From the NCBI GenBank assembly GCA_039630325.1, contig JBCNVG010000013.1, forward strand, positions 48,396 through 112,395: a stretch of DNA of 64,000 nt. Direction: 5' to 3'. This DNA is from Bacteroidia bacterium (GTDB taxonomy: Bacteria > Bacteroidota > Bacteroidia > SpSt-205). A program made the translations under genes and the position numbers. Under the pieces are notes generated by a model. It was given only the letters and a program-made list of their open reading frames with translations. It ran no database searches and was not told where the DNA came from. Below, piece after piece: positions 858 through 27,239 of the stretch (positions within the stretch are counted from its first letter, which is position 1; each line of letters opens with the position of its first letter).

Positions 858-2065
858 ATGACTTGCAGGCGCAAACTTAAGACTCTTTTAGGTGTAGAAG
901 CCAAAACCTCCCACCGAAATCCATATGCCTCCCAGGTAGTCCCCTTAGGAGGAATGTACCCTAAAAAGTGCAGAGCTAATCCACCCAAAGTCACGGCCAG
1001 CTCCCGGGGTAATCCTAACGCATACTTTTCGTTCAAATAGTCAATCTCCAGCGAAGCGTCCAGCTCATACACGCCTGGGGCAGGTAGGCGCTCTAAATGG
1101 TTAGGCTGCTCTTCATGTTCATCTTGGATTTCGCCAAAAACCTCTTCCACCAAATCCTCAGTCGTGACAATCCCCGCCATCCCCCCCCGAGCATCCACGA
1201 CCACCGCCAAGGTAGCTTTTTCCCGAACAAGTTGTTCTAATAGGCGAGTAGCTGGCATACTTTCAGGCACAAAGCTGACGGGCTCTACCAGGTCTTGGAT
1301 AGACTTTGCTCGCTTCATCAGAGAGCGCACATACACATACCCCTTGATATGGTCTAAGTCTCCTTCGTACACCAGCACTCGCGATCGCTCAGATTTGATA
1401 AAAGTCTGGCGAAGCTCTTCCAAGGAGGCATCCAAACTGATTGCCACCACTTGGGGGCGCGGTACCATAAACTCGCGGACAGGCGTTTCATTGAGGGCCA
1501 GGGCTTTGGTTAGGACTTTTTGGAGATGGGGCTCGGGCGTCTCTACGAAATGAGATAAACCCTCGCGTGAAAGTGGCTTATAGAAAGCATGTTCACGAAG
1601 GCGGAATGCGGCATATAAACTTCGAGTCAGCCAGTAGACTATTTCCACCACGGGAAATAAGAGCGCGTACATCGCCCCGGTGAAAGGCACTACCGCTGGC
1701 AGCAGAGCGGCTTGCCAGCGACGAAATAATGTCTTGGGAAGGTATTCCCCAGCGATGAGGAGGAGTATCCCCCCTATGATCGTCTCAACCCAAAACCGTA
1801 CTTCGGCCCCCCATTCCCTCAGCGGAAAAAGGAACGCACTCAAAGCTGCTGAAAATCCTACCAAGGCGAGATTGTTAGCTATGAGCAGCGTGATGAGAAG
1901 TCGCTGAGGATGCCTGAGGAAGAACTGCACAATTTGCCAACGGCGAGGATGGCGAATTCGCCACATTTCCCAGTATAATGGATTAGCACTGATCCAAGCC
2001 ATTTCCCCGCCAGAAGCCCATGCACTCAAGAGCAGCGCCAAAAGGCCTAATAGGAGCCAGCTCAT
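854..2065 (-). CDS. gldE: CNNM-family membrane protein (DUF21 TM domain + tandem CBS + CorC_HlyC), GldE-like
   Basis: Hydrophobic N-terminal DUF21 region, a CBS pair (VREFMVPRPQVVAISLD...VLVYEGDLDHIKGYVYVRSL) and a CorC/HlyC C-terminus. The probable start is the internal ATG at 2065 (MSWLLLGLL), which overlaps the upstream gene's stop as ATGA. The track ORF extends to 2218. Confidence 0.7.
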   Translation of the reverse strand: MSWLLLGLLALLLSAWASGGEMAWISANPLYWEMWRIRHPRRWQIVQFFLRHPQRLLITLLIANNLALVGFSAALSAFLFPLREWGAEVRFWVETIIGGILLLIAGEYLPKTLFRRWQAALLPAVVPFTGAMYALLFPVVEIVYWLTRSLYAAFRLREHAFYKPLSREGLSHFVETPEPHLQKVLTKALALNETPVREFMVPRPQVVAISLDASLEELRQTFIKSERSRVLVYEGDLDHIKGYVYVRSLMKRAKSIQDLVEPVSFVPESMPATRLLEQLVREKATLAVVVDARGGMAGIVTTEDLVEEVFGEIQDEHEEQPNHLERLPAPGVYELDASLEIDYLNEKYALGLPRELAVTLGGLALHFLGYIPPKGTTWEAYGFRWEVLASTPKRVLSLRLQVI

Positions 2066-2619
2066 GGCACGGGGGATTGAATAGTTCCTCGTAGGCGTCG
2101 TAGCCGATAAGTACGAGCTTTTACATTGTATTCCAACTCCTCTCCGCGCAAAACTTCTTCCGGGGTTTCTAATCGTACCCAGCCCCGTGCTGTCATGAGA
2201 TCCTTGCCCTGTTCCCAAACCAAGTAGTCAGTCTGCAATCGAAGCCGATCTGCTGTCTCTAAGAGAACATTTTTCTCTGCCACATACACCTCGCGCTCAG
2301 GATAAGCCCGGGCGGCCTCGCTACGAAGCGTTTCTAAGGTCTCACCCCGAGCATTTTTATGGATAGCATAAACCTGACCTTTCAAAGCCCAGTAGGTAGA
2401 ATCGCCCTCTTTTACTTTCACTACCCGCTGGGCAGACACATATATGTATTCCCCAGCGGTATCTACCCATTCCAGCGTGTATCCCCGAACCTCGTAAGGA
2501 GGTATGCTTTGCCGCTGAAGTATCCACTCTGGGGAACGGGGATTCGCTTCTTTTTTGTGTGAACGGCACCCTGCACCGACCACTACAAGGACACAGAGCA
2601 TTATCGCACGACTATTCAT
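2062..2619 (-). CDS. LptC-like (OstA-family) periplasmic lipoprotein
   Basis: 185 aa with signal/lipobox-like MLCVLVVVGAGC. The beta-rich pattern (GYTLEWVD...YIYVSAQRVVKVKEGD...KGQVYAI...YVAEKNVLLETADRL) resembles the LptC/OstA fold. It sits immediately upstream of the CorC-like gene, a pairing typical in Bacteroidota. Confidence 0.45.
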   Translation of the reverse strand: MNSRAIMLCVLVVVGAGCRSHKKEANPRSPEWILQRQSIPPYEVRGYTLEWVDTAGEYIYVSAQRVVKVKEGDSTYWALKGQVYAIHKNARGETLETLRSEAARAYPEREVYVAEKNVLLETADRLRLQTDYLVWEQGKDLMTARGWVRLETPEEVLRGEELEYNVKARTYRLRRLRGTIQSPVP

Positions 2620-2730
2620 GTACTACTTGAAGGCTTCGCTCAGAGATCACCTCTCACACTGCCCAAAATAGGTAAATAGCATTCAAAACTTTACCCCCAA
2701 TCAAGATTTCTACCGTCGAGAAGTATAGCA

Positions 2731-3147
2731 TCATTGACGATGTCTTTTAGGAGGAGAGGAAGAATTGGCCTCAACTTTCTGGAGGGCATCTTCTCCAGTC
2801 CAGCAGCGGATCTCTAATCTGGCACCTTTTTGACACTCTATCTGGCGCGCTCTGATTTCTCCCTGAACATAAGCAGTCGAGGCGACTTCTATGCTCTCTT
2901 CCGCAATAATCTCCCCCGTAAAATGCCCTGCAACATGAATTTGCTTGGCGTGGATGATGCCATCTACGGTGGCGGAAGGAGCAATCACTAGGCGACCCTC
3001 CACGCGGAGCGTGCCTCGGTAGGTGCCTTCTATGCGAAGGTTACCCGGCGTATGAAGCTCTCCCCTCGTTTCACTGCCCTCTCCTAATAGAGAGAGAGCT
3101 TTTTCGTGAGCTGTACTGGTGCCAGAGTGATTTTTCCAAAAGCTCAC
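2731..3147 (-). CDS. Bactofilin (polymer-forming cytoskeletal protein, DUF583)
   Basis: 138 aa with a repetitive beta-helical core (LRIEGTYRGTLRVEGRLVIAPSATVDGIIHAKQIHVAGHFTGEIIAEESIEVASTAYVQGEIRAR) typical of bactofilins. Confidence 0.7.
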   Translation of the reverse strand: MSFWKNHSGTSTAHEKALSLLGEGSETRGELHTPGNLRIEGTYRGTLRVEGRLVIAPSATVDGIIHAKQIHVAGHFTGEIIAEESIEVASTAYVQGEIRARQIECQKGARLEIRCWTGEDALQKVEANSSSPPKRHRQ

Positions 3148-3206
3148 GCAGCAAATATACTTAGCTACTCTGATTTATTGCCTCAATCTTCTATAATCAC
3201 TGAGCC

Positions 3207-3983
3207 TTATTTTCGAGGAAAAATGCCGTAAATGCTGCTGCCACTCCCATTCATGCTGGCATATAAGGCCCCAGCGTCGTACAAGGCTTTTTTGAAAGTG
3301 AGGAGAGTCGGATAAAGCTGAAAGCTTACATTCTCAAGGTCATTGTGGAGATGCTCGCGCCACATTCCTATCCCACTACTAAGAATAGGCCGAATAGAGG
3401 TACGACTCCAATGGGAGCTTCGCAAACCGCGATACACGTGCTTAGTGGAGCAAGGTACAGGCGGAGTCAGCATAACAACCTCATAAGCGCTGAGGTCTAT
3501 GGAAAAAGGCGTAAGCCGGGTTCCTGTATCTGTGGCAAGCATGGGGCCCTCGTAGAGGAAAAAAGGCACATCACTACCCACTTGGGCTCCCACTTCATGC
3601 AAAAGGGAAGTTGGCAGCTCTAATATTTCTTGCATGATACGCAAAAACGCTCCACTATTACTTGAGCCGCCGCCTAAGCCAGCACTGATAGGTATCCTCT
3701 TGTGTAAGCGGACCGACATCGCTGGCAGGGGGCGCCCGAGTTTCTCGCGCAAGAGGCGGTAGGTGGTCTCCAGGTAATTTTCCTCTGAATCTGGTATTTC
3801 CATCCCAGTGATATGGAGCTCCAATCTGTCGTGCCCAGGCAAAAGACGCACTTCTAAGTCATCATACAACTCTGGATAGGGTACTAAGAGCGTCTCTAAA
3901 ATGTGGTATCCATCAGGCCATCGTCCGATGATATGAAGGCCAAGATTGAACTTAGCGATACTGGTAGCGTAGTAAGTAGTCAT
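3207..3983 (-). CDS. ispE: 4-diphosphocytidyl-2-C-methyl-D-erythritol kinase
   Basis: GHMP-kinase motif PISAGLGGGSSNSGA, length 258 aa, overall IspE architecture. Confidence 0.85.
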   Translation of the reverse strand: MTTYYATSIAKFNLGLHIIGRWPDGYHILETLLVPYPELYDDLEVRLLPGHDRLELHITGMEIPDSEENYLETTYRLLREKLGRPLPAMSVRLHKRIPISAGLGGGSSNSGAFLRIMQEILELPTSLLHEVGAQVGSDVPFFLYEGPMLATDTGTRLTPFSIDLSAYEVVMLTPPVPCSTKHVYRGLRSSHWSRTSIRPILSSGIGMWREHLHNDLENVSFQLYPTLLTFKKALYDAGALYASMNGSGSSIYGIFPRK

Positions 3984-4885
3984 AGCAGCTTCTGACGCTT
4001 CAAAAGATAGCGACGCAAAGGTTCAAAAAAGTCTGAGCCCATATCCACTTCTACCCAATCTATACGATGACCGATGCAAAAGGACTTCAAGCGATATTCC
4101 CACCGCTGGAAATGCATCTGATATAAAGCCTGCATTTCGAGGGGATGGATTTTTACCTCTCGGCGAGACTCCAGGTCGATCAAACGCAGAGGCTCTAAGG
4201 GAAGCTCAAAGCGCTTCTCGGTTCGCTCATCCCATATTCGGAAAAATATCACTTCATGCCCTTCGTAACGCAGACGAGCTAAGCTGCGCATGAACGCCTC
4301 CTCTGCTTCGGGAAGAACGAAACCGTCACTAAGGATTAAGACAAGGCTACGACGACGCAAACGCTCGGCTACTACCTTCAAAGCCTGAGGGAGCCTGGTC
4401 AAATGCCCCTCCCCTTTCTTTCTCCTCAGAGACTCTAACTCCAAGAGAACTTTTCGGAGCCAAGTTTGACGCGCCCGCGCCGGCAGTAGCTGATGAATCG
4501 TCTCATCAAATACATACAATCCCACCGCATCCCGCTGCTGAATAAGAAGGTAAGCCAAAGCCGCCCCCAGAAATAATGCATAGTCTAACTTCGTGTATGG
4601 GGCTTTTGGAGGATAGTTCATGGAACTGCTTGTATCTATGAGAAGATAAGCCCGAAGGTTCGTCTCTTCTTGATAACGGCGAGTATAGAGCTTCTCGCTA
4701 CGAGCGAATACTCGCCAATCTATCTTTTCAAGCCCTTCACCTGGCTGGTAGGGGCGATATTCTGAAAACTCTACCGAAAAACCCTGATAAGGACTACGAT
4801 GAAGCCCTACCAGGAATCCCTCCACAATCTGGCGGGCAATAATTTCCAGGTTCGCTAACTGAGCTGCCTGTTCTGGCCTAATCAC
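3980..4885 (-). CDS. DUF58 domain protein (vWA-like, usually MoxR-associated)
   Basis: N-terminal DUF58 signature (QGFSVEFSEYRPYQPGEGLEKIDWRVFARSEKLYTRRY...LIDTSSSM). Its 4-nt overlap with ispE links it to that gene. Confidence 0.75.
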   Translation of the reverse strand: MIRPEQAAQLANLEIIARQIVEGFLVGLHRSPYQGFSVEFSEYRPYQPGEGLEKIDWRVFARSEKLYTRRYQEETNLRAYLLIDTSSSMNYPPKAPYTKLDYALFLGAALAYLLIQQRDAVGLYVFDETIHQLLPARARQTWLRKVLLELESLRRKKGEGHLTRLPQALKVVAERLRRRSLVLILSDGFVLPEAEEAFMRSLARLRYEGHEVIFFRIWDERTEKRFELPLEPLRLIDLESRREVKIHPLEMQALYQMHFQRWEYRLKSFCIGHRIDWVEVDMGSDFFEPLRRYLLKRQKLL

Positions 4886-5604
4886 AACTCTTCCAAATCT
4901 ACACCCTCCAAGTCAATCTCCTCCTCTTCTTCCATACCTTCGGGAAAGTCCATTTGAAAATCATAATCATCTTCCAAGTCCAGTTCCTCCTCCGTTTCAA
5001 TGGAAGGAAGTGCTTCCTCTCTAAGCAGCTTGTCAGGAGGTATATCTATTTCACCCAAGTCAAGTCCCAGTCCTTCTGCCTCATTGGATGTAGTAGACTT
5101 CGTTGCATTAGAGCCTCCAGAAGCCCCAAGGGAAGGCGAAGATACCCGCCCAGACAGAACCTTCTGAGTATGAGAAGAAGGAGATGCTGGAAGAAGAGCT
5201 GACCTCAAAGCGCTGGGAGTAGGTAACTCAGCATCCGTGATATACACCCGAGTAAAGGCCAAAACGGGACGAGATTGACGGGGCGGATAAACAAAAACAT
5301 GGTAGATTCCTCTCTTGCGAAAAATCAGTCGGCCCCAGTAAAGATTACGATTAACCTTTGAGCGATACAAAGCAAAGACGGACGCTGATCTCTTGGAAGA
5401 ACGCACCACTGCCCAGAGCGTATCTGGAGCTGGTGATGCCACAAATCTGGCTTCCATCCAGAGGTATAGTGGCGCTACCCGCAGCTGAAAAACGGTATCC
5501 ACTTCTAAAAGCCGATCCTGTGGCCCTATACCTTTCCCTACCCGAAGCTTCCCCTGAGTATAAATGAAGGCAGGCAAGCAGAAAAGGGAAATGCACCAGC
5601 GCAT
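4882..5604 (-). CDS. Hypothetical protein with a strongly acidic C-terminal tail
   Basis: 240-aa ORF that overlaps the DUF58 gene by 4 nt. No recognisable domain. The C-terminus (EEELDLEDDYDFQMDFPEGMEEEEEIDLEGVDLEEL) is low-complexity acidic. Confidence 0.35.
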   Translation of the reverse strand: MRWCISLFCLPAFIYTQGKLRVGKGIGPQDRLLEVDTVFQLRVAPLYLWMEARFVASPAPDTLWAVVRSSKRSASVFALYRSKVNRNLYWGRLIFRKRGIYHVFVYPPRQSRPVLAFTRVYITDAELPTPSALRSALLPASPSSHTQKVLSGRVSSPSLGASGGSNATKSTTSNEAEGLGLDLGEIDIPPDKLLREEALPSIETEEELDLEDDYDFQMDFPEGMEEEEEIDLEGVDLEEL

Positions 5605-15967: not shown

Positions 15968-16822
15968 ATGAAATCCATCCTACATCTTACGGACTTTTCA
16001 GAAGTCGCCCAGAATGCATACGCTTATGCTATAGCGATTGCCAAAAAGTACGGTGCTGAGCTGCATGTTGCCCATATCTATGATCGACCATATGCAAGTA
16101 TCGCTTATCAAGGAGGCCTATCCGCTGTGGTAGATGCTGAAATGGATGCTAAAATCCGCCGTGAACTTCTCAAACATTTAGAGAGTTATGTCACCTCTGC
16201 TCCATCCGATGGAGTGCGAGTGCTAATGCATTTATGGGGCGATCAGACTGTTTGGCGACCAGACCAGTACTTGAACAAGGTCCCAGGGACAGAGCTGATA
16301 GTGATGGGTACTCGCGGTGCCACAAGCTTATGGCATGGAGGGCTATTCGGAACAAATACAGCTCGCCTCATTCGGCACAGTCCTGTACCAGTTCTTGCAG
16401 TTCACGCGAAAAACACCTATACCGACTACCAAAAAGTCTTACTGCCCATAGATATTTTTGATGAGGCCACTATACCGCTGCTTCAAGCTGCGCTGCAGTT
16501 TTTGCATCCATGGCCGAATGCAAAGTTCATCCTCTTAGTGATTAACACGCCATATGTTTTCTACGACACCCCCTCCATAGATAAGTTCCTGGAAGAGGTC
16601 AAAGAGAAAGTCAGACGCCCCAACATAGAACTTCGGGTATATAATGATATCTCCGTAGAAGAAGGACTGCGACAAGCCATGGATGCAGAAAAAGCCGACC
16701 TCCTCGTGATGGGAACCCACGCTCGCAAAGGGCTGGCTCAGCTTCTATTTGGAAGCATCACCGAAAATGTAGCTCAGCATTTAGAATATCCTCTATTAGC
16801 TTTTCCTTTGAGTAAAAGCTGA
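15968..16822 (+). CDS. Universal stress protein, tandem UspA domains
   Basis: Two USP repeats (ILHLTDFSEVAQNAYAYAIAIAKKYGAELHVAH ... LLVMGTHARKGLAQLLFGSITENV). Confidence 0.8.
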   Translation: MKSILHLTDFSEVAQNAYAYAIAIAKKYGAELHVAHIYDRPYASIAYQGGLSAVVDAEMDAKIRRELLKHLESYVTSAPSDGVRVLMHLWGDQTVWRPDQYLNKVPGTELIVMGTRGATSLWHGGLFGTNTARLIRHSPVPVLAVHAKNTYTDYQKVLLPIDIFDEATIPLLQAALQFLHPWPNAKFILLVINTPYVFYDTPSIDKFLEEVKEKVRRPNIELRVYNDISVEEGLRQAMDAEKADLLVMGTHARKGLAQLLFGSITENVAQHLEYPLLAFPLSKS

Positions 16823-16895: not shown

Positions 16896-16950
16896 CCCAA
16901 ATAGCTACGGGGGTGCGTCTGCACCCCCGTAGCTATTTGGGAAAGATTTT
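16896..16950. terminator. Bidirectional rho-independent terminator (perfect 21-bp stem, 4-nt loop) between convergent genes
   Basis: cccaaatagctacgggggtgc-gtct-gcacccccgtagctatttggg followed by aaagattttt. It lies between the stop of the USP gene and the stop of the giant minus-strand gene. Confidence 0.6.
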
Positions 16951-16957
16951 TGCTTGC

Positions 16958-19900
16958 TCAGGGGACAAGTTTGAGTAGCTTGAGAGATATTTCCTCGCCA
17001 TCCTTGAAAAACTGAAGAGTGTAGATACCCGTTGCCCAGGAGCGAACATCTATCTGGACTTCGTGAAATCCAGCGGAATAACTCTGCGGTGTGATGTAAG
17101 AGACCAACGCACCCTTGGCATCATATACCCTCACCTCGACATACTTCTCCTCGGATAGACTAAACTGCACTGTGAGAAGCTCCGTCACTGGATTAGGGAA
17201 GGCCCTGACCAGCTCCTGGATAGGCCCTGAGACCTCTCGAGGGAATCTAACTTCTGCTAAGTTACTGTACGCCACCTCCCCTCCCAAGTGTTCGCTCACT
17301 ACTCGGTAGAGGTTAGTTTGCTCGAAGCTAGGGAAGCTGTCTATCCAACTAAATGAGGTGGATCCTTGAACGGGATATCTGTATACCTCCACCCACCCCG
17401 TATCCACACGCTTCTGCAAAAGCGCATACTGGATGGGGACATTCGTTTGCCATAAGAGGCGAATATGAGCCTCGGGCGTCGGATAAGCGGCCAATACACT
17501 TTGTATAGCAGGGAGGGGTGAGCAGTTAGTGACATTTACAGTCTGCTGGACAGTATCAGGGCAAGCACCAGGAGCACTCACCACCATAGTTATCGTCTTC
17601 GTGCCTGGTGTACTCCAAGTGCAAGATTGGGAACCGCCAGAACTCCAGGTTGAGCCATTATCACAGCTCCACTGGACATTCCCGCCAATCACTGGTGAAC
17701 TGGAATAAACCTGAAACTCCCCGAAAGTAGGAGCATTTGCCGCCTGCACATCAAATTCTAACCGCCATAGATGCGCAAAAATAACCTGGGTCTCCGTGAA
17801 AATGCCGCTGTCGTAGACATAACTACCTGGGGTAAAGGAGAAAGTTTTGGCCAACTTCCATCCCGAACCGTCATTGTAATAAAGACGAGCCCGTCTCGGA
17901 AGGCGCTGGGCCGCATTTGGACAGGACTGGCATGCCCAGAATACGATTCTATTCACGCTGCGCGGTATAGGGTACCGCCACATGGCCCATTGAGTGCTGG
18001 CTCCTGGGTTATTGGCTGTCCAGGCGGTACCGTTTTGATAGATACCATCTCCAAGCTGAGCAAAGTTAGCTGTTTGGACAGAGGAAAAAGTGAGCTGACT
18101 CATGTTGGGGACAGTTCCATGGATACCGAATCCAGTGATTAGGGTACCGAAGCTCGGTTGGCTCGGCCCTGAAACGAGGGTTTGATTGGTAAAGGTTACT
18201 GGCTGTCCTGTGCAATAAGGAATAGGGCTAATAGAAAACTGCCCATCTATCCGAGGCAGAGCAATAGCGGCTATCGGCACTCGCTCTGCGGAGCAGGAAT
18301 TTTCCACCCAATATAGCTGAGACTGCGTCAGAGATGATATGACGAGGGTAGGCGTATTTGAAGCGATAGGTGTCCCGCTAGAAGGGGTGAGATACCAGTT
18401 AGAGGGAACGCCGGCTTGGAGCGTGAGGGAGCTCCCTGCACATACGGCGGTATCTTTTTCCTGAGCTAAAAAGTTGGTCGTGTATGCCGTTGCCGCCCCA
18501 TCATAAGGTCCGCCAGCGATGGGAAGAGGACATCCTGATAGAACTATCTGCGTTGCCGCCCCATCATGCGGCCCCCCCACATAACTAAAAGTCGGACAAC
18601 TCGCTAACACCACCCCACTCGCAGACCCATCATAGGGACCTCCCGCAATTGGCATCGGGCAGCTCGCTACAATCACCTGCGTCGCAGACCCATCATACGG
18701 ACCTCCTACATAACTAAATGTCGGACAGCTCGCTAACACCACCCCACTCGCTGACCCATCATAGGGACCTCCGGCGTACGGAAGCTCAGGAAGGGGACAG
18801 TTTATTATCGCAGCGACGGCAGCCCCATCATAAGGACCACCAGTGTATTCCGTGATATCCCAACAAATAGCCCCTACAAACGCTGTCGCCGCCCCATCAT
18901 ACGGCCCCCCTGCATAGCTCAGTGTCGGACAGTTCGCAAGGAGTACTTCACTCGCAGACCCATCATACGGCCCGCCAGCAATCGGCATCGGACAACTTGC
19001 CACAATCACCTGCGTCGCAGAGCCATCATACGGACCGCCTACATAACTAAAAGTAGGACAGCTAGCTACCACCACTTCCGTAGCAGACCCATCATACGGC
19101 CCACCCGCAATCGGCATCGGACAGCTCGCCACAATCACCTGCGTCGCAGACCCATCATATGGGCCCCCTATATAACTCAATGTAGAACAACTAGCCAAAA
19201 CTACCGCCGTAGCTGAGCCGTCATAGGGACCACCAGCTCTTGCAGGCCATATCACATCAAACTCTATGCAGAAGGTAGAGTCGCATAAAGTGCCATTTGT
19301 CACCGTAACGCATACACGCTTTCGCCCCGGTATAGTGTAGCTCACAGGAGGAGGTACAGGGCCGCTATAGTCTATTTGCGAGGCGCCACACCCAGCACTG
19401 CCATTTGCACAGAAGTTCCAGTAAATATTTGCCCCCGTTCCATTTACAGTATCTACATAAGTGGGCGAAAAGGTAATAGGAATCCCAAGCCAAACTGGTG
19501 AAGGAGGACTCATGGTAACACTCACCCCTGGCATCGGATAGATGATCAAGTAGCGACATGCTGTATCCGCCTGGGTACCATTACTCACCCGCAGACATAC
19601 CAAGTATGTATCTGCCACTGTATAAGTATGTTGCGGCTGAAAATGGGTAGAAGTATTTCCATCCCCAAATAGCCAATAGTACTGAATCCCAGGACCCACT
19701 GAGGAATAGTTTAGAAACTGGATGGACTGTCCTGAGCAAGAGCCTACAAAATCAAAGTTAGCTCTTGGTCTATCAGGATCAGGCGGAATGCACGTTTGCT
19801 GGATAGGATTTGCTGTAACATGCACAGTGATATCTCCTGTGGCCCATTCCGGCATCACGACTTGTATCCAGAAACTTTTGAGCGGAGGGCGGCATTTCAG

Positions 19901-22900
19901 ATGCAGCGTAACATACGTCCCCTCAGCGACACACTCCTCCTGGTTCATGGTGTTACAATCCCCCGTAAGTACCCGATAGAGCACCTGACTACCCAAGGCA
20001 GTTGTATTTTCCACGATCTGCACGTCAAAATCCATCGTATCAGGCGTGAGGTTATTCACGAGCACCCAGGCAGACTTCTTCCCTACAGGGGTGCCAAAAC
20101 ATGCCATGATTGTGTCGGCCTCTCCAGCACCTTCACCGATAGTGAGGCAGTTTATGAGCAGATTGGTAGAATACGGCCCCCCCGCAGCAGCCACAGATAT
20201 AGTCACGGAGTCTTGACAGAAATCCCCTGGATGCCTTTGGAGCCATATGCGGGGGACCACTAATCCGAGATGATTACACCCTGTGAACATAATATAGTAC
20301 CGCCCTGGCCGAATACATCCTCTACCCCAATAGCGGTATCCCAAAGTAGGATGCGTCTCCCACACCCCCGTCAGAGGAACCCGAACCAACCCAGTGGAAG
20401 AGGAATCGCCAGGTACAGCTTGATAATAAAGCTGTATATCATCGGGATGGTAGTTATACTGATTCACGCCAGGACGGTCATAGTTGAGAAAGACATAGCC
20501 TGTGATTGCTGATTCAAAAGCATACCAAATGGTTCGAGTTCCGCAAGCATTTTGGTCTGTGGGGTCTTTGGTAGCACAGGTAAGGTCTCCTTGACAGCCC
20601 GTGTAGGTACCAGCTGAAAGTGCCGCCCAGGTGTAAGGCAAGTCACATTGAGTAGTCGGATTAGCAACTATGACATTAGCCTCAGAATAGTGGTCGTAGT
20701 TTACGCCCCCTCCCGGCAAAGGTTCCAAACGCACTCCAACTTCCACCTGTATATTCGGTTCTTTACCACAGGTATTACGATACACTACTACGTAATATCG
20801 CTTTGGAGGCTTGCAGGCATCTCGTTGAAAGCTCACAGTAGTGTACTGGTCACAACACCACCACCAACCTTGCGAAGAGGCAACCAATGTGAGTCCATTA
20901 GCTATTGTTGAATCCACACTCGTCGGGAATGCCCCCGGAGGGTCATCGCTTTCATACACAGCAAACGCCGGCTGCCATCCCGTACCAGGGGTCTGAGCAT
21001 AAACACTGACATGTACGCGAACATTGCCCCCGGCTACGAAAGTATACCACAGATTACGACGCCGATCAGGTAGGGTCGTGGGGGGAGAAGCAGAACCAGG
21101 GTTGGTATTAACTACCCCCAGAGGACAGTTGGCAGAGGGATCTGTGCTGAAGGCGTCTGTAGTGCAGAAAATAAAGTCTGTACTCCCAGGCCGCCCGTAA
21201 GGTCCCAGGGGATCTCCTGGTCGGGTTCTATACTCCGTATTGTCTGGGGGAAGCGTGCCAAAATCATACGCATGAACAGCGTAATTATGCAGAGAATACC
21301 CTACCGAGTCCACATAGATAGTCGGCGTGTAAGTGGATCCGATACACCCATCACCTGCAAAAGTTACCAGGGTATAAGTCCCAGGTGGCACCCAGCATAT
21401 GCGCCCAGTACCCGAGAAACAATCATGAATAATGGTGTAAGGGGGAGCGTTGGCTGTAATGTCACCCTGATACAGGCGAGAAGAGCCATAGCAACCATTC
21501 TGATAGATGACGAGGTAACTGGGACGAGTAACAGAAAATACCCGATAGCTCACTCTATTCTGGCCTCCGCTACACGGGGTGATGCCAGAAGGAAAAGGTA
21601 AATTATTAGCACAGCCCCAAAACTCCCAATCCAGTGTATAGCTACGATGCTGATTAGGTGCGTAGACATAGTGAGGTACCCAGTCTAAGTTGCCAGGTCG
21701 GTCAGCCGTGGCAAAGGTGCCGAACTTCTGAACCCTCGGATCACGAGAGATAGTAAACCATATGCGATTTCCTATGGCCCCGCCCCTTCCGCTGGTATAT
21801 GAAGGGTTAGTGTATGTACCTCCCACCGCATATGCTACGAAAGTGTACCAGCCAGGCTCCATACACACTGTATATCCCCCATGACAGTCCATGAAGAGAG
21901 AAGTAAGGGTATTATTACTTATCCGTCCCCGAAAGGTTCGCCAACCGGTAACGCCCAGCTCTGGCCAGGCTACATAGGCATACTGCGGAGAGAAGGTTAC
22001 CAAGCTCGGTTCAGCGATATAAACTTCCCAATAAAACTGCTTAGTGGCACCGCCACACGGAGCATACCCTAAGATGGTTAGAGGATTATCATGGCAAGTA
22101 ACACGAGTCCAAGTCGCCGTCAAAGAGTGCGTAGCCCCCCCTATCGTCCCAACCTCCTCCACATTCGGACGGGGATCCGGATTCCCCGGCAGGCTCACAG
22201 GGGCTGTGGGGGTGTAAAATCGCCGCTCTCCAGGCGGGAATACATGAAAGCGAAACCATGGACGATCCCTTTCCCCAATGTCCGAGTCGTCACCAAAGCT
22301 TACCAAGGTATAGTAGCCAGGAGTTACACACACCTTGACAGGGTAGTAAAGGTCCTGACACCCCACCTGGTCAATCAAGTTCTGAATACGACCTCCTACA
22401 ATAGGTTCTACACGAGCATCCCCGCGGTAGAGCCTATACCTAAATCGCCACCAGTTCCCCCCACCCACTTCTAAAATCCCCTCTTGATCTACTCGGATAA
22501 TCCGATAAATAGCGCGATTATTACCTCCACCGCATACATCCCCAGCTGGTAGAACGGTGGTTCGGCAGTCTAAGGTATCCCACTGAGCGTAGTAAGTTAC
22601 CCCCGGAGTCAGGGGAAGTCCATTATTGATAGAGTCAGCTTCTTGAGGACGGATGTGAAGACCGAAATTCTGCTCAGGCGTGGAGCCTAACTGTACATGG
22701 AAACTAACGGGCAACCCCATAGCAGAATAAGGTGACCTGCAAGCCCCCCACAGAGCTGAACGATTGATGCGAGCCAGCACCTGTACGGTATAAGTTCCAG
22801 CTGTGAGACAATTCACCCACCCATCATTATCCACGACGGCTTTGAGAGGGAGATTGCATCCATTTATCGCGGGCGTGCCTTCAAAAACCCTAAATCGCAC

Positions 22901-24151
22901 CGTACCCATGCAGTACCACCAATCCCAGGGCCAGGGATAAGAGTACCAAAATCGCACATGCGCCGCCCCTGTCAGAGTAAACGTGTAGTACAGGGCTAAA
23001 TCAAAATCTCCTATTGTATCATCTGGGGTAACGGCACTACCAAAGGTGCCACAGGGATTATCAACGATACGGCTCTGACATCCCCAAAAGTCGCTGACTG
23101 TAAAAGTTGGACCAAAGGATAAAGTTCCTAAGTGATGAGTGCCTGGAATACTAAGGGGATTGTAGGATATCGCAGCTTGGCTACCGCGCTCATACAAGCG
23201 CAACCGAACCCTATTGGCGTAATTGGTACGCCCTAAAATTTTTATGGAATAATAGGTATTCGGCTGAAGCTGACACAACCTGTCATAACGAGCACCCGTA
23301 CTGCTATTGTTCTGAACCATGGGAATGCAGCCTTGGATGAGTGTCAGGCCGGCTGCCGAGTCAGTTAGCGCATTGCCCTGGTAGATGAAGAGCCGCCATT
23401 CCCTTGGGGAGGGATTAGAACTATTCCAAGGGTCCTCCATGAGCTCTATACCTACCCAATCCACATAAGCGTCGGTTCGGAATACATGCCATGTGGATTT
23501 ACTCCAGCTTGAGTCATTATCACAAATCGTCTCACCTTGACTCACAGACTGACAAGCGTAGTCAAAAGTGACATCCTTGAGCAAAACGGAACTTGCAGAA
23601 GTATTAAGGACCCCGAGGTTTTGAGCTGTGGCCATATGGTCATATTCCGCCTCCGCTCCTGCACTGATTGAGGGAGCGGATACGATCAGTTCTAAAAATA
23701 TTTGACCACTGACTGCAAGGTTAGCTCCCACCTGCACCATATACCAGCCCCGTTGAAGGCAGGCGTGTGTGTATCCCTCCATGAGGACTATGGGCGGGTC
23801 TACCCGTTGAGCTGGACCGGGTAAGCAGGTATTGCCCCGATAAAGTGTCCAACCCACATGCGTAGGGTCAATAGAATTCCCCACTTGTCGAAGGATGATG
23901 CGTACTGTCCGCGTCGTGGGTAGGTAGAAACGATACCATACACTTTTTCCATTCGGAACTCCAGGGGGAATATACTCACCCGCTTGGAGTGTAGCATTAG
24001 TGATATTTACGGTATCGCTGTAGAAAGTACCCACCCCATATGGACTATGCGGATTGCCGAAAGCGACGAAGGATCCATTAGCGCAGTTATCGTTCGAGGG
24101 GGGCTGGGCAAGTACTATGCTTACCCAGCCTATGACCCACACATGGCGCAT
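16958..24151 (-). CDS. Giant secreted cell-surface protein (2397 aa) with T9SS C-terminal sorting domain, PKD and F5/8-type-C (discoidin)-like domains, and an internal tandem-repeat array
   Basis: N-terminal signal peptide. The C-terminal about 80 aa match the Por secretion tail (PNPVTELLTVQFSLSEEKYVEVRVYDAKGALV...GIYTLQFFKDGEEISLKLLKLVP). A PKD-like motif (YYWLFGDGNTSTHFQPQHTYTVADTYLVCLRVSNG) and a discoidin-like block (WAMWRYPIPRSVNRIVFWACQ...) are present. About 12 GGPYDG repeats are also present. Confidence 0.85.
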   Translation of the reverse strand: MRHVWVIGWVSIVLAQPPSNDNCANGSFVAFGNPHSPYGVGTFYSDTVNITNATLQAGEYIPPGVPNGKSVWYRFYLPTTRTVRIILRQVGNSIDPTHVGWTLYRGNTCLPGPAQRVDPPIVLMEGYTHACLQRGWYMVQVGANLAVSGQIFLELIVSAPSISAGAEAEYDHMATAQNLGVLNTSASSVLLKDVTFDYACQSVSQGETICDNDSSWSKSTWHVFRTDAYVDWVGIELMEDPWNSSNPSPREWRLFIYQGNALTDSAAGLTLIQGCIPMVQNNSSTGARYDRLCQLQPNTYYSIKILGRTNYANRVRLRLYERGSQAAISYNPLSIPGTHHLGTLSFGPTFTVSDFWGCQSRIVDNPCGTFGSAVTPDDTIGDFDLALYYTFTLTGAAHVRFWYSYPWPWDWWYCMGTVRFRVFEGTPAINGCNLPLKAVVDNDGWVNCLTAGTYTVQVLARINRSALWGACRSPYSAMGLPVSFHVQLGSTPEQNFGLHIRPQEADSINNGLPLTPGVTYYAQWDTLDCRTTVLPAGDVCGGGNNRAIYRIIRVDQEGILEVGGGNWWRFRYRLYRGDARVEPIVGGRIQNLIDQVGCQDLYYPVKVCVTPGYYTLVSFGDDSDIGERDRPWFRFHVFPPGERRFYTPTAPVSLPGNPDPRPNVEEVGTIGGATHSLTATWTRVTCHDNPLTILGYAPCGGATKQFYWEVYIAEPSLVTFSPQYAYVAWPELGVTGWRTFRGRISNNTLTSLFMDCHGGYTVCMEPGWYTFVAYAVGGTYTNPSYTSGRGGAIGNRIWFTISRDPRVQKFGTFATADRPGNLDWVPHYVYAPNQHRSYTLDWEFWGCANNLPFPSGITPCSGGQNRVSYRVFSVTRPSYLVIYQNGCYGSSRLYQGDITANAPPYTIIHDCFSGTGRICWVPPGTYTLVTFAGDGCIGSTYTPTIYVDSVGYSLHNYAVHAYDFGTLPPDNTEYRTRPGDPLGPYGRPGSTDFIFCTTDAFSTDPSANCPLGVVNTNPGSASPPTTLPDRRRNLWYTFVAGGNVRVHVSVYAQTPGTGWQPAFAVYESDDPPGAFPTSVDSTIANGLTLVASSQGWWWCCDQYTTVSFQRDACKPPKRYYVVVYRNTCGKEPNIQVEVGVRLEPLPGGGVNYDHYSEANVIVANPTTQCDLPYTWAALSAGTYTGCQGDLTCATKDPTDQNACGTRTIWYAFESAITGYVFLNYDRPGVNQYNYHPDDIQLYYQAVPGDSSSTGLVRVPLTGVWETHPTLGYRYWGRGCIRPGRYYIMFTGCNHLGLVVPRIWLQRHPGDFCQDSVTISVAAAGGPYSTNLLINCLTIGEGAGEADTIMACFGTPVGKKSAWVLVNNLTPDTMDFDVQIVENTTALGSQVLYRVLTGDCNTMNQEECVAEGTYVTLHLKCRPPLKSFWIQVVMPEWATGDITVHVTANPIQQTCIPPDPDRPRANFDFVGSCSGQSIQFLNYSSVGPGIQYYWLFGDGNTSTHFQPQHTYTVADTYLVCLRVSNGTQADTACRYLIIYPMPGVSVTMSPPSPVWLGIPITFSPTYVDTVNGTGANIYWNFCANGSAGCGASQIDYSGPVPPPVSYTIPGRKRVCVTVTNGTLCDSTFCIEFDVIWPARAGGPYDGSATAVVLASCSTLSYIGGPYDGSATQVIVASCPMPIAGGPYDGSATEVVVASCPTFSYVGGPYDGSATQVIVASCPMPIAGGPYDGSASEVLLANCPTLSYAGGPYDGAATAFVGAICWDITEYTGGPYDGAAVAAIINCPLPELPYAGGPYDGSASGVVLASCPTFSYVGGPYDGSATQVIVASCPMPIAGGPYDGSASGVVLASCPTFSYVGGPHDGAATQIVLSGCPLPIAGGPYDGAATAYTTNFLAQEKDTAVCAGSSLTLQAGVPSNWYLTPSSGTPIASNTPTLVISSLTQSQLYWVENSCSAERVPIAAIALPRIDGQFSISPIPYCTGQPVTFTNQTLVSGPSQPSFGTLITGFGIHGTVPNMSQLTFSSVQTANFAQLGDGIYQNGTAWTANNPGASTQWAMWRYPIPRSVNRIVFWACQSCPNAAQRLPRRARLYYNDGSGWKLAKTFSFTPGSYVYDSGIFTETQVIFAHLWRLEFDVQAANAPTFGEFQVYSSSPVIGGNVQWSCDNGSTWSSGGSQSCTWSTPGTKTITMVVSAPGACPDTVQQTVNVTNCSPLPAIQSVLAAYPTPEAHIRLLWQTNVPIQYALLQKRVDTGWVEVYRYPVQGSTSFSWIDSFPSFEQTNLYRVVSEHLGGEVAYSNLAEVRFPREVSGPIQELVRAFPNPVTELLTVQFSLSEEKYVEVRVYDAKGALVSYITPQSYSAGFHEVQIDVRSWATGIYTLQFFKDGEEISLKLLKLVP
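18481..19248 (-). repeat. In-frame tandem repeat array (about 12 units of 63-66 nt, i.e. 21-22 aa) inside the giant gene
   Basis: The DNA motif gacccatcatacggacc recurs about every 60-70 nt. It encodes GGPYDGSATQVIVASCPMPIA alternating with GGPYDGSASGVVLASCPTFSYV. Several units are identical at the protein level. Confidence 0.8.
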
Positions 24152-24186: not shown

Positions 24187-25689
24187 TTATCGGGCACCTC
24201 GGCCACCAACATGGTGATGTCTATGAGAAGGATTGCGATTATTTGAACACCCATGGTTAGGGAACGAGCAGTTCCGAGCGGAAACCCTATGCTCGCGCCA
24301 GTCATTACCCCATGAGCCTCCTCTGAGCCCAAATCCCGCAGGGTTTCCTAAGGGCCAGGAGGGTTGATTAGCCGCTCCGGTCCCCCAATCCAACACTCCG
24401 TCTCCCCAATTGCCTGTATAAGTAGGCGAGCCTACTGTCCCATCGGGTGCCGAAACCATTACCACCATCTCCCACACGTTTCCGCTCATATCCATAACTC
24501 CATAGTACGAGGCGCCGCTGGCTTCCCTATTGGGAGAACCTGGCTTAGCATGAATCCCCACCCGAACAGGTCCTTGGCCGCCATCTCCACCACTGTAGTT
24601 CCCCCCAATCCACCCCGTACAGTTAGCATTTGAGGGAGCACTAAAAACCTCGGTTCCGTTTTCCGGTGTAATGCTCAAAGTAGTGCCGAAATTAATGTTC
24701 GTAGAGCCCCATGCATATTCCCCCCTAACTTCAGGGAGCGCCCCCCTGCATATTTTCTCGTATTCCATTTCCGTGATAGGGCGTAGAGCCGCCCAATCCA
24801 GATAAGCACAGAGATCATGCCAGGATAGGTAGTTTTGTGCTCTATCCTCTCTATCAGAAAAGTACTGAGAGGGATAGACCCCAGTATTAGCTAACCTGTT
24901 ACGATAGCTATTGAATGACCCTAAATATCTTAGTGAGGCGGCACCTGCGGGTAAAGTGTTCAAAAAAGCTGCATACTGACCTTGCGATATTTCATATTTC
25001 ATTACGTGGAAAGCCTTATAACCCTTCGGGAAACTGGTAGGAACATTTATGGAAGTAGAGCCTGAACCAGCCCATTTGAGAGAAATAGCTGCTTCTGAGG
25101 TAATGTTATAGGGTATGTGAGGATTACCACTATTCCCATTCTGATCAAAAGCACGGGCTGCTTCATCGCTCCAATCATGCCACCCATCTAAAGTACCTAA
25201 GACGTAAGCTCCCTCGGGTATAAACACCATCTCTATCCCAAAAATCCTAAAGTCATACTGTCCAGTCGTAGGCAAATTCGTTACCTTAAGAGTAACGCTG
25301 TGAGGTCCGAATGTCGCATAGGTACCCGCATTTGCCGGGCGGAGCATGATGCCCAGATTATTCGGCGCAGGATCTACCCCTACTCCACTCCCATCAGCTA
25401 AAACTGGCTCTAACGCGGCGGGTATCGTGTGATCGCTCAGCGTTGTACTTATCTGTCCATGAGTCCATGGGTCAACAAACTGATTACACGCCCTAAACTT
25501 TACAAAAATCCAAACGGCATCCCAGTTAGCTGGGGGTGTGGTGAGACGCCAGGCATTCTGCCAGCTTACTTGAAAGGAAACGGTCTGGTTAGCTTGGTTT
25601 ACAGTAAAATTCGTTATTTGCAGGTTATTCGCCAGCAGAGAAAGGCTACTCAGTAGCCCGACAGCTATATAGTAGCAGCTCCGTGTCAT
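24187..25689 (-). CDS. Secreted FGE-sulfatase (SUMF1/EgtB/PvdO) domain protein with an N-terminal beta-rich extension
   Basis: Signal peptide (MTRSCYYIAVGLLSSLSLLA). The FGE-domain motifs are IEMVFIPEGAYVLG, YEISQGQYAAFL, GNVWEM and RGGSWGNDW. It lies 35 bp upstream of the giant T9SS cargo gene in the same direction. Confidence 0.75.
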   Translation of the reverse strand: MTRSCYYIAVGLLSSLSLLANNLQITNFTVNQANQTVSFQVSWQNAWRLTTPPANWDAVWIFVKFRACNQFVDPWTHGQISTTLSDHTIPAALEPVLADGSGVGVDPAPNNLGIMLRPANAGTYATFGPHSVTLKVTNLPTTGQYDFRIFGIEMVFIPEGAYVLGTLDGWHDWSDEAARAFDQNGNSGNPHIPYNITSEAAISLKWAGSGSTSINVPTSFPKGYKAFHVMKYEISQGQYAAFLNTLPAGAASLRYLGSFNSYRNRLANTGVYPSQYFSDREDRAQNYLSWHDLCAYLDWAALRPITEMEYEKICRGALPEVRGEYAWGSTNINFGTTLSITPENGTEVFSAPSNANCTGWIGGNYSGGDGGQGPVRVGIHAKPGSPNREASGASYYGVMDMSGNVWEMVVMVSAPDGTVGSPTYTGNWGDGVLDWGTGAANQPSWPLGNPAGFGLRGGSWGNDWREHRVSARNCSFPNHGCSNNRNPSHRHHHVGGRGAR

Positions 25690-25814
25690 ATCAATGCAAA
25701 CCTAAGATAGAAAATGTACTTCGGCGAAACCACATTTTTACCCTTGGTAAACAACTTGAAGTTCATATTATCTTTACAAGATCAGCACATGACTCAGAAA
25801 CAGGTAAACAAATG

Positions 25815-27239
25815 GGACGACTTCAAAGATACCTACGAAGCCTCACCCCTTCAGAATGGGAATCGCTTTACACCGAAGCCCAGAAGGAACTAAGAGGTCA
25901 CAAGATGCGCTCCCTACTGGAGCGTTTACGCCGCACCAGCGCCCCCCAAGTTCTAAACCCAACGGAAAAAGAACTCGCTAAACGCATAGAGCGTTGGATA
26001 TGGAAGCATGCCTTTATTCAGGCGCACAAGTCTCATCCCATATACGCTTCCCCTCCGATAGAATGGATTAGTAAAGGGGCTCTCCTCTATCATGCCAAGG
26101 GATTGTCCACAGATGCCCTTGCCTTACTGCGCGGTGAGGTCCATTTACCCCTGGAAAAATTGACACTCCTTTTCCTCAGACTCAAAATTCAAATAGAATC
26201 CGGCGCCGCTAAGAAGGCATCTAAAACTCTGAGGGAAATAGAGCACATCAGCGACCATTTGAGAAGATCTATCCAGCGCGAACGGCTCCAGCTTACCCTT
26301 TGGCGTCTCCTAAATGAATATGGGGGCTCCTACACTGAAATCGGTCAGCGCTTTTTGAGAAGATTAGAAAAGCACCCTTATTGGAAGCACACTCATGGTA
26401 CAGCCTCAGAAGAGAGTGTGGCAGATACTAACCTTCGGATATTATATGCCTTAGCGAAAGGAAACCCCATGGAAGCATATAAGCTGTGCCTTGATAAAAC
26501 CGCTCAATCCCATCCCAGCATCCTCCTCAACCGATGGCTATGTAGTATCATGCTAAAACATCCTCTAAGTGAATATCTATCCTACGACACCTTGTATACA
26601 ACCAAGCTCTCAGAATATGACAAAGCCACTCTCTTAAATCGCGTACTCTTAACCCTCCTGATTTACGGGTCGCCAGCTTACTTGACCTCTAAGCTATCTC
26701 TATTGGAGCATTGGTATTTGAGCTCCGGTTTCCTTCCAGAAAATGGTCTCGTGTGGCTACAACTGCTTTGGCTCTGCGGAAAGTCTGAAGAAGCTATCAA
26801 GCTATCAGAGAACCTATTAGAGAAAGTAGAAGGCAAACCCTTCACTTACATTCAAGTGGCACTTATGCTTCTGTTGATTTATGCTGAAAATCACAAATGG
26901 AATAAGCTCGTACAACATCTTCGGAGATTGCTTTACTGGCTAAAGAGAGTAGAGAAGTTCATCGCTTCAGCACCCGTAATGCATAAACTGCTCAGGCAGC
27001 TCTATCAGGCTCGATTGCGCCCACAGGTCCTTTCAGCAGTGGCTGAGAGGTGGAAAAAACATCTTGCCTCATACCCTACCGAACGCTACTTCTGGGAAAT
27101 TACCCTATTACCAGATTGGATTGAAGCCCGTCTCAGCCATCAAGGAATCATCGGATATCGCCAAAACGCCCACCGGGCTTCAGTCACCGATCTTGAAGCT
27201 TTGATTCAAAAAGCAACCCGGGTATTTCCTCCCTTGTGA
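25815..27239 (+). CDS. Hypothetical alpha-helical protein
   Basis: Long ORF with good coding character but no recognisable motif. The start is set at MGRLQRY (25815) because the track start at 25683 would overlap the divergent FGE gene start. Confidence 0.4.
   Translation, partial: GRLQRYLRSLTPSEWESLYTEAQKELRGHKMRSLLERLRRTSAPQVLNPTEKELAKRIERWIWKHAFIQAHKSHPIYASPPIEWISKGALLYHAKGLSTDALALLRGEVHLPLEKLTLLFLRLKIQIESGAAKKASKTLREIEHISDHLRRSIQRERLQLTLWRLLNEYGGSYTEIGQRFLRRLEKHPYWKHTHGTASEESVADTNLRILYALAKGNPMEAYKLCLDKTAQSHPSILLNRWLCSIMLKHPLSEYLSYDTLYTTKLSEYDKATLLNRVLLTLLIYGSPAYLTSKLSLLEHWYLSSGFLPENGLVWLQLLWLCGKSEEAIKLSENLLEKVEGKPFTYIQVALMLLLIYAENHKWNKLVQHLRRLLYWLKRVEKFIASAPVMHKLLRQLYQARLRPQVLSAVAERWKKHLASYPTERYFWEITLLPDWIEARLSHQGIIGYRQNAHRASVTDLEALIQKATRVFPPL

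Follow-up and report, generated by a model that had tools for sequence, protein, structure and literature searches.

Here we describe a tandem repeat and its neighboring gene in a 64,000-nucleotide (nt) stretch of DNA from a Bacteroidia bacterium (GTDB lineage SpSt-205; GenBank assembly GCA_039630325.1, contig JBCNVG010000013.1, forward-strand positions 48,396 to 112,395). This whole stretch is referred to as the window. The repeat, an in-frame array built on the motif GGP[YH]DG, lies on the minus strand within a long open reading frame (ORF). Judged by its sequence context, the array is an internal module of a giant surface protein exported by a type IX secretion system (T9SS). The gene directly upstream encodes a protein with a domain resembling formylglycine-generating enzymes (FGEs), which we call the partner; the window holds exactly one array ORF and one FGE-like ORF. 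Positions of the features are collected in Table 1.

Table 1. Features of the array locus, in window coordinates (aa, amino acids).
Feature	Position	Strand	Remarks
Partner gene, 500 aa	24187..25689	-	35 nt upstream of the giant gene, co-oriented; Pfam FGE-sulfatase PF03781 47.1 bits (cutoff 23.3), aa 225-472
Host gene	16958..24151	-	2397-aa secreted giant protein
PKD domain, aa 1472-1531	19559..19738	-	Pfam PKD_4 47.4 bits, PKD 41.8 bits, both above cutoff
PKD-like beta-sandwich, aa 1535-1639	19235..19549	-	directly N-terminal of the array; 4-5 conserved Cys
Units 1-5	18911..19234	-	A-B-A-B-A (22, 21, 22, 21, 22 aa); longer by one A-B pair than this block in P0005, P0001, P0003 and P0004, which are the closest relatives
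Units 6 and 7, central "keystone" pair, 23 aa each	18773..18910	-	GGPYDGAATAFVGAICWDITEYT and GGPYDGAAVAAIINCPLPELPYA
Units 8-11	18515..18772	-	A-B-A-B; 8 = 10 and 9 = 2 = 4 in protein
Unit 12, partial, terminal	18452..18514	-	GGPYDGAATAYTTNFLAQEKD; no Cys; runs into the Ig_7 domain
Ig_7 (CHU_C-associated Ig-like) domain, aa 1899-1966	18254..18457	-	Pfam 32.8 bits (cutoff 27.3); AlphaFold2 pLDDT 75-88; forms a cap at the array's C-terminal side
T9SS type-A C-terminal sorting domain, aa 2318-2390	16982..17200	-	Por_Secre_tail and TIGR04183
Hairpin, perfect 20-bp stem followed by a T-run	16896..16941	.	between the giant-gene stop codon and the convergent universal-stress-protein-like (usp-like) gene 15968..16822; consensus scan only

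The array covers window positions 18452..19234, corresponding to residues 1640 to about 1900 of the giant protein, and its 12 GGP[YH]DG motifs span residues 1640-1885 at successive spacings of 22, 21, 22, 21, 22, 23, 23, 22, 21, 22 and 21 aa. Units 1-11 occupy 19234..18515, and a partial terminal unit fills 18514..~18452. The original prediction, made from the sequence alone, had placed an in-frame array at 18481-19248, with about 12 recurrences and a true period near 129 nt; its coordinates are close to ours, and our data bear out the count and the period. The 17-mer that it cited occurs 12 times at up to three mismatches, compared to 0.15 expected by chance (one copy is exact), and Tandem Repeats Finder (TRF) returned periods of 63, 66 and 129 nt, with the top score (400, 83% matches) for 129. 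Two subtypes take turns, A ending in ASCPTFSYV (22 aa) and B ending in ASCPMPIA (21 aa). This alternation had also been described, but it is interrupted at the center by two distinct 23-aa units (6 and 7) of which no mention was made. Since the array and the alternation of its subtypes are both far beyond chance expectation, we consider them real.

The repeat is much less uniform in DNA than the "near-perfect" array originally described. Matches across the array periods range from 68 to 83% in TRF, units of the same subtype share 87-94% of their nucleotides and units of different subtypes 55-75%, and the longest exact repeated word is 29 nt. One protein sequence is common to units 2, 4 and 9, and another to units 8 and 10. 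In the first set 6-8 of 21 codons differ, and in the second 4 of 22. All of these differences are synonymous. Protein-identical units that differ only at synonymous positions indicate purifying selection.

We also examined the single Cys of each unit, which had been described as standing always in the context ASCP. An alignment of 47 double units from 27 proteins revealed that GGPxDG and one Cys at a fixed distance from it are invariant, and that conservation of the Tyr exceeds 90%. In the orthologue family each full unit invariably has one Cys, but the ASCP context is specific to the lineage of the window; other lineages have SNCNVNIF, EDCDTLNFF or QQCVSYA in its place. The window array contains 11 cysteines, an odd number, and arrays elsewhere may have an even number. 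Related arrays without any Cys also exist (P0092, P0108 and P0110; P and L numbers denote proteins and loci in our collection), and in some relatives units of a GGSNDG...NQNPL type take the place of those with a Cys. Because Cys-free arrays keep the same gene partner, the Cys does not define the functional element, and the original suggestion that it could form disulfides between repeats or be a site of modification, which is only half supported, probably concerns a secondary feature.

In the giant protein, an N-terminal part of about 1400 aa is followed by two domains, one PKD and one PKD-like, and then by the GGPYDG array; beyond the array come an Ig_7 domain, more beta domains and the T9SS type-A sorting domain. 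Its N-terminus, MRHVWVIGWVSIVLAQPP, looks signal-like on reading. The sorting domain was detected over residues 2318-2394 of 2397 by both PF18962 (42.5 bits, cutoff 27) and TIGR04183 (31.6 bits, cutoff 23). In a structure prediction, the PKD-like domain was modeled with a predicted local distance difference test (pLDDT) score of mostly 72-90, with one block at 62, and its Foldseek matches are PKD domains of collagenases and of PrtV; the alignment of orthologues contains invariant Cys columns within this domain. The N-terminal ~1400 aa matched no Pfam or NCBIfam model above cutoff. Full-length orthologues of the giant protein, at 38-79% identity, were found only in uncultured Bacteroidia/Bacteroidota metagenome-assembled genomes (MAGs) and metagenomes. 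Separately, the N-terminal two-thirds of the protein (aa 1-~1400, window 19952-24151) aligns at 27-31% identity with the N-terminal regions of giant proteins of the CHU_C/type-B-sorting kind (P0028-P0038 and the protein at L008). Several of these homologues come from Chitinophagaceae-type bacteria (Ferruginibacter, Terrimonas), and all of them are without the array.

To what extent the repeat occurs beyond these orthologues was assessed by sequence searches. An exhaustive HMMER search with a double-unit profile recovered 143 cluster representatives at E<=1e-3, 42 of them at E<=1e-10, among 1.84 billion. Searching a word index of 5.8 billion proteins with the repeat alone yielded one match for the double-unit profile and three for the 273-aa array; the full-length protein and the exhaustive profile search were the informative queries. 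The profile matches fall into two groups, one comprising giant orthologues and paralogues and the other many small proteins of 130-1360 aa. The latter combine a signal peptide, Q[YF][KRT]GG..DG repeats of 19-27 aa, an LP(I/V)ELL Fn3-like domain and a T9SS sorting domain. In these small proteins (L024-L036, L009, P0072-P0110) the repeat begins with Q[YF][KRT]GG right after the signal peptide. Bacteroidota favor Gln after signal-peptide cleavage, and an N-terminal Gln fits this preference. When 185,579 species, each represented by a single genome, were scanned for the pattern, 14 loci emerged; the 13 convincing ones all belong to uncultured Bacteroidia/Bacteroidota MAGs. The remaining locus, L022 from Sphingopyxis, has neither an array nor an FGE-like gene and was rejected as a chance pattern match.

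The array has no match above cutoff among Pfam and NCBIfam models and no sequence relative in the Protein Data Bank (PDB). One lead, Pfam DUF7930, was pursued and rejected, as the array scored 25.1 or 23.2 bits compared to a gathering score of 27 and no single stretch passes alone. E-values as good as 1.9e-9 were obtained with this model for three of the 13 orthologue regions, but it is absent from the arrays of distant orthologues and from the small array proteins. Within the searchable literature library, nothing was found on the GGPYDG motif or on DUF7930. The description that suits the repeat best is that of a beta-solenoid coil repeat not catalogued before, in which "solenoid" stands for the predicted fold discussed below, with length steps of two coils.

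The size of these steps became evident when arrays were compared, as the original prediction had proposed along with a structure prediction of the repeat block. Motif counts range from 5 to 14 among 24 orthologues and paralogues, and the arrays share the architecture [A(22)-B(20/21)]n - A - C(23) - D(23) - [A-B]m - terminal unit. The window has n=2 and m=2. Values of n=1 and m=2 were found for P0001, P0003 and P0004, n=1 and m=3 for P0002, and n=2 and m=3 for P0007, P0009, P0010 and P0011; P0008 is without the C-D pair. The nearest relative, P0005 (86% identity), reads A-B-A-C up to the end of its contig and has one A-B pair fewer than the window before the center. Aligned with MAFFT, the arrays differ by clean insertions or deletions of whole A-B pairs (43 aa, 129 nt), at several positions and on both sides of the central pair. 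Among the listed orthologues, down to those at 38% identity, most keep the central 23-aa pair, both its place and its type of sequence, while the units on either side turn over; the pair is missing from P0008 and from the 5-motif arrays P0013, P0014 and P0016. The terminal-unit type of the window also ends the arrays of the closer orthologues (P0001-P0012 and P0014), and in distant orthologues the only trait common to the terminal unit is the absence of Cys.

Copy number differs even between fairly close relatives. P0012 and P0010 have 10 and 14 motifs, respectively, and outside the array they are 94.8% identical on the N-terminal side and 98.8% identical on the C-terminal side. In contrast, 14 motifs are present in each of P0007, P0009, P0010 and P0011, which are 95.4-99.8% identical, and independent MAG proteins in two 90%-identity clusters have a uniform length of 2351 aa. 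The array is length-variable between lineages, over evolutionary time, and is not a hypervariable or fast-switching locus. The predicted "length-variable locus" thus stands with respect to the whole-pair changes and not with respect to any rapid switching. A units resemble other A units of their own lineage more closely than their positional counterparts elsewhere, and runs of identical units are present in several arrays; both observations point to repeated lineage-specific duplication or conversion. We suggest that A-B coil pairs may recombine unequally, such that two-coil modules (129 nt, ~9.6 Å) would be gained or lost on either side of a conserved center and rod length would differ among lineages.

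We next turn to the fold of the array. An AlphaFold2 (AF2) prediction for the array alone from a 16-sequence alignment gave a model with a mean pLDDT of 79.4 and a predicted template modeling (pTM) score of 0.75. The model is strictly periodic: a 6-residue strand directly follows GGPYDG, a 3-4-residue strand lies just before the next GG, and the Cys is located in the arc between the two strands of a unit. Confidence dips over units 6-7 (pLDDT 56-66), and this central pair could be a kink, a bulge or a binding site in the rod. The model's Foldseek neighbors in the PDB are all beta-solenoids, namely trimeric autotransporter (TAA) heads, CbpF, the left-handed helices of LpxA/GlmU, CsgA (curli) and tapirin. 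The best superposition was obtained with 3p4g, the Ca2+-dependent beta-helical antifreeze domain of MpAFP (TM score 0.52/0.49 over ~295 columns). In addition, P0072, a small family member that matches the double-unit profile at E=2e-40, passes both Pfam Beta_helix (43.7 bits) and NosD (48.3 bits).

Based on the model, the array is most likely a stack of beta-solenoid coils, one per 21-23-aa unit. Each coil would consist of the GGPYDG arc, the 6-residue strand, the Cys arc (xASCPx) and the 3-4-residue strand. Beta-solenoids rise by ~4.8 Å per coil, from which each A-B pair is estimated at ~9.6 Å and the whole rod at ~55 Å. The ~11.5 coils would thus stack into a rigid rod between the PKD-like and Ig-like domains of a T9SS-exported, surface-anchored protein. 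The invariant GGxxDG arc would be the structural signature of the coil and, if comparison with MpAFP and RTX rolls is a guide, may act as a turn that binds Ca2+. The single Cys of each coil would form a ladder along the opposite edge. The turns of RTX proteins and MpAFP (GGxGxD and xGTGND) bind Ca2+, and GGPYDG resembles them.

Among known systems, region IV of MpAFP from Marinomonas primoryensis (3p4g) is similar to the array as modeled: both consist of short coils in tandem, each with a single Gly/Asp-rich turn, and both are internal, rod-like modules of giant bacterial surface adhesins. The two share no significant sequence similarity, and the period is 19 in MpAFP and 9 (18 per turn) in RTX proteins, compared to 21-23 aa here. 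The array further differs from both in its one Cys per coil, its two alternating coil subtypes and its export by the T9SS rather than the type I secretion system (T1SS). With its 21-23-aa period it is not an RTX nonapeptide repeat, and no RTX/HemolysinCabind Pfam match was found even at E<=10. Right-handed parallel beta-helices (PF13229, PF05048, PbH1) also have coils of ~22 residues, but DSSP assigned two strands per coil to our model rather than three, and no catalytic groove is expected. Adhesin stalks (Rib/alpha-like, SprB repeats, RTX extender domains) provide a further comparison, as they too are in-frame repeats of giant surface proteins with recombination-driven copy number. In contrast to these stalks, the units of the array would be single solenoid coils rather than autonomous domains, they have low DNA identity to one another, and length changes by two-coil modules on the two sides of a central pair that stays fixed.

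The partner protein has a signal peptide; its N-terminal domain (ANNLQITN...) is conserved, and its C-terminal domain is FGE-sulfatase-like and ends in GGRGAR. A terminator scan detected no terminator-like site between its gene and the giant gene. We built a hidden Markov model of this protein and ran it over all fetched loci. A gene of the same FGE-like subfamily adjoins, in the same orientation, every array gene that has enough flanking DNA, at ~27 loci with several unrelated architectures (the window, L001-L007, L009, L011-L020, L023, L024-L028, L032-L036 and L038-L040). At every fetched orthologue locus it lies upstream of the orthologue, and the remaining neighborhood varies. The partner precedes the array gene in 11 of the 13 convincing loci from the genome scan, the other two (L010 and L021) starting too near the contig end, and in 10 of 10 small-array metagenome loci having upstream DNA. 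For two Cys-free arrays, P0092 and P0108, it is located immediately downstream. Where no partner was found, the array gene was always at a contig edge. One to three or more FGE-like copies stand directly before the array gene in these genome-scan and small-array metagenome loci, and likewise before that of the distant paralogue P0026 (L007), the small P0072 (L009) and the 1359-aa P0080 (L040). Two to four tandem FGE-like paralogues before a single array gene were seen at L016 (positions 1-4922) and also at L005, L009, L013, L018, L034 and L040.

As a control, we considered L008, which encodes a homologue of the giant protein over its N-terminal ~1500 aa with a type-B sorting domain and without the array. 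This gene has no FGE-like neighbor. Given that array proteins of diverse architecture have the partner and an array-less homologue does not, the pairing tracks the repeat rather than the remainder of the protein. No description of this pairing was found in the searched sources.

Despite its FGE-sulfatase domain, the partner shows only 24 bits of similarity to genuine FGEs. It reads RGGSWGNDWREHRVSAR, with no Cys pair after RGGSW, and the catalytic/Cu-binding Cys pair of FGEs (RGGS-x-x-C-x4-C) is not conserved among 30 subfamily members, although many other residues are. The FGE substrate motif CxPxR is likewise absent from the array units. The partner has no NCBIfam match at E<=1e-5, and hence no GldJ or GldK model matched it. 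A lipobox Cys at the end of the signal peptide is absent in 10 subfamily members. In PorK, GldK and GldJ, an FGE-like fold without active-site cysteines serves as a docking hub of the T9SS and gliding machinery (PMC12421860), and GldK is disulfide-linked to partner proteins through a conserved Cys (PMC12635249). By analogy with these proteins, the partner is most likely a non-enzymatic docking or maturation partner of the solenoid. It is not specific for Cys, because Cys-free arrays keep it.

The resemblance to PorK, GldK and GldJ extends to the FGE-like domain without active-site cysteines, the occurrence in Bacteroidota and the T9SS context. The partner differs from them in having no lipoprotein Cys, a distinct N-terminal domain and the GGRGAR end. 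It also differs from them in genomic setting, being present in one to three or more tandem copies beside a cargo gene rather than in a gldKLMN-type operon.

Taken together, we judge it somewhat more probable than its negation that the array is a solenoid rod that changes length by pairs of coils and is associated with an FGE-like partner. Several points weigh against this reading. The fold is a prediction from a shallow alignment; none of the Foldseek hits has E<1e-3, and a TM score of 0.5 denotes likeness of fold class only. A first AF2 run, with flanks included and 13 sequences, gave the array a pLDDT of only 30-68; the flanking domains were well modeled, and the Foldseek matches of that run reflected the PKD and Ig domains only. 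Neither the window array nor its orthologues match Pfam Beta_helix or NosD. The link to right-handed beta-helix families is therefore transitive, as it is P0072 that matches them. Some relatives, P0072 among them, have GGxxNG rather than GGxxDG, which weakens an obligatory Ca2+ role of the Asp. Most of the copy numbers were taken from short-read metagenome assemblies, in which repeats can collapse, and two orthologues, P0005 (1725 aa) and P0018 (1658 aa), are incomplete and stop within the array. Breaks at the repeat may occur in some short-read assemblies, which calls for caution in comparing copy numbers. P0018 lies on a 351-kb contig, so that a contig break is not demonstrated for this protein. 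Finally, adjacency alone fits docking as well as catalysis.

Other explanations were weighed with the same data. A flexible, low-complexity linker without defined structure would account for the abundance of Gly, Pro, Ala and Ser in the array, for the lack of a family-model match and for the low confidence of the first AF2 run. We find such a linker scarcely credible given that the motif and Cys are invariant down to relatives at 38% identity, that duplicate units show 0 non-synonymous and 4-8 synonymous codon differences, that the second AF2 run was confident and that P0072 matches beta-helix models. Alternatively, an A-B pair (43 aa, with two strands per unit and thus four per pair) could be a blade of a Kelch-like propeller, in which case the array would close into a toroid. 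The length of a pair is near that of a Kelch blade, and the array profile matches the designed protein SAKe6FR at E=1.3e-10 and Keap1 weakly, via (I)YAxGGYDG. This likeness is confined to the local motif hydrophobic-Y-A-x-G-G-Y-D-G, which recurs every 21-23 aa in the array and every ~47 aa in Kelch proteins, and the HMMER alignment can be made only with large gaps. Propellers are plentiful in the PDB, yet none appears among the 50 best listed neighbors of the AF2 model, and the predicted fold is open and linear. Moreover, a closed ring does not agree with motif numbers of 5, 8, 9, 10, 12, 13, 14 and as many as 23, some of them seen only among distant GGxxDG relatives, or with arrays in which one unit type alone has expanded (P0015 and the small proteins). 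The Kelch propeller was rejected on the grounds of period, predicted fold and unit numbers, and we regard it as very improbable.

The same holds, to a similar degree, for rapid copy-number switching inside populations, as at a contingency or antigenic-variation locus, which strikes us as quite improbable. An in-frame tandem repeat within a surface protein would be expected of such a locus, relatives at ~95% identity do differ in copy number, and two assemblies break inside the array. Against this, an exact repeat of at most 29 nt, unit identities of 55-94% and TRF matches of 68-83% are not those of a phase-variable repeat, copy number is stable in the closest relatives (all four proteins at 95.4-99.8% identity, and the equal lengths within both 90%-identity clusters), and the purely synonymous differences between protein-identical units imply old duplicates under selection. 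Switching by frameshift is impossible because the units are multiples of 3 nt (63-69 nt). A further explanation concerns the partner, which might enzymatically modify the Cys or another residue of each unit (to formylglycine, or by cross-linking), making the array a multi-site scaffold. The strict adjacency of the FGE-like gene at all informative loci, the one invariant Cys per unit in the orthologue family, often followed by Pro, and the many conserved polar residues of the FGE-like subfamily are all compatible with modification, and FGE-family proteins bind extended peptides. However, the subfamily is without the two catalytic cysteines after RGGS and only distantly similar to genuine FGEs, CxPxR is missing from the units, and the Cys cannot be the common target since Cys-free P0092 and P0108 keep their FGE-like neighbor. 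Non-catalytic use of the FGE-like fold is also established in Bacteroidota by PorK, GldK and GldJ (PMC12421860). Conversion of Cys to formylglycine was discarded as the principal explanation for these reasons (no catalytic Cys pair, no CxPxR, partner retained beside Cys-free arrays), and we view enzymatic modification in general as unlikely.

Returning to the solenoid rod with its docking partner, we tentatively propose that GGxxDG solenoid proteins and soluble FGE-like proteins could constitute a two-component surface module of Bacteroidota. In this possible but rather doubtful scenario, an FGE-fold protein related to PorK/GldK would recognize the coils, either docking stoichiometrically along the rod or acting as a periplasmic maturation or modification factor before T9SS export, and the number of coils would set the number of partner molecules bound.

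Considered alone, the array is another length-variable structural repeat of a bacterial surface protein, which is ordinary. The repeat type is rare and outside Pfam and NCBIfam, and its unusually well-defined architecture provides what would be a naturally graded set of rods, each of a different length. Of all the leads, the strict pairing between the repeat and the FGE-like family most deserves to be followed. If true, a second, cargo-linked FGE-like family would extend the docking-hub theme described for PorK/GldK in 2025 (PMC12421860, PMC12635249).

Two further features flank this gene pair. The hairpin downstream of the giant gene (Table 1) is, from its sequence, probably a bidirectional terminator that ends the FGE-like/giant-gene unit. 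On the other side, a 518-aa ORF (window 25683-27239, plus strand) is divergent from the FGE-like gene. Its start call is doubtful because the GTG start overlaps the start of the FGE-like gene by 7 nt. The encoded protein has no Pfam or NCBIfam match and reads as helical. As homologues were found only at the closest orthologous loci (L001-L004), this ORF seems to reflect synteny within the lineage rather than a wider module.

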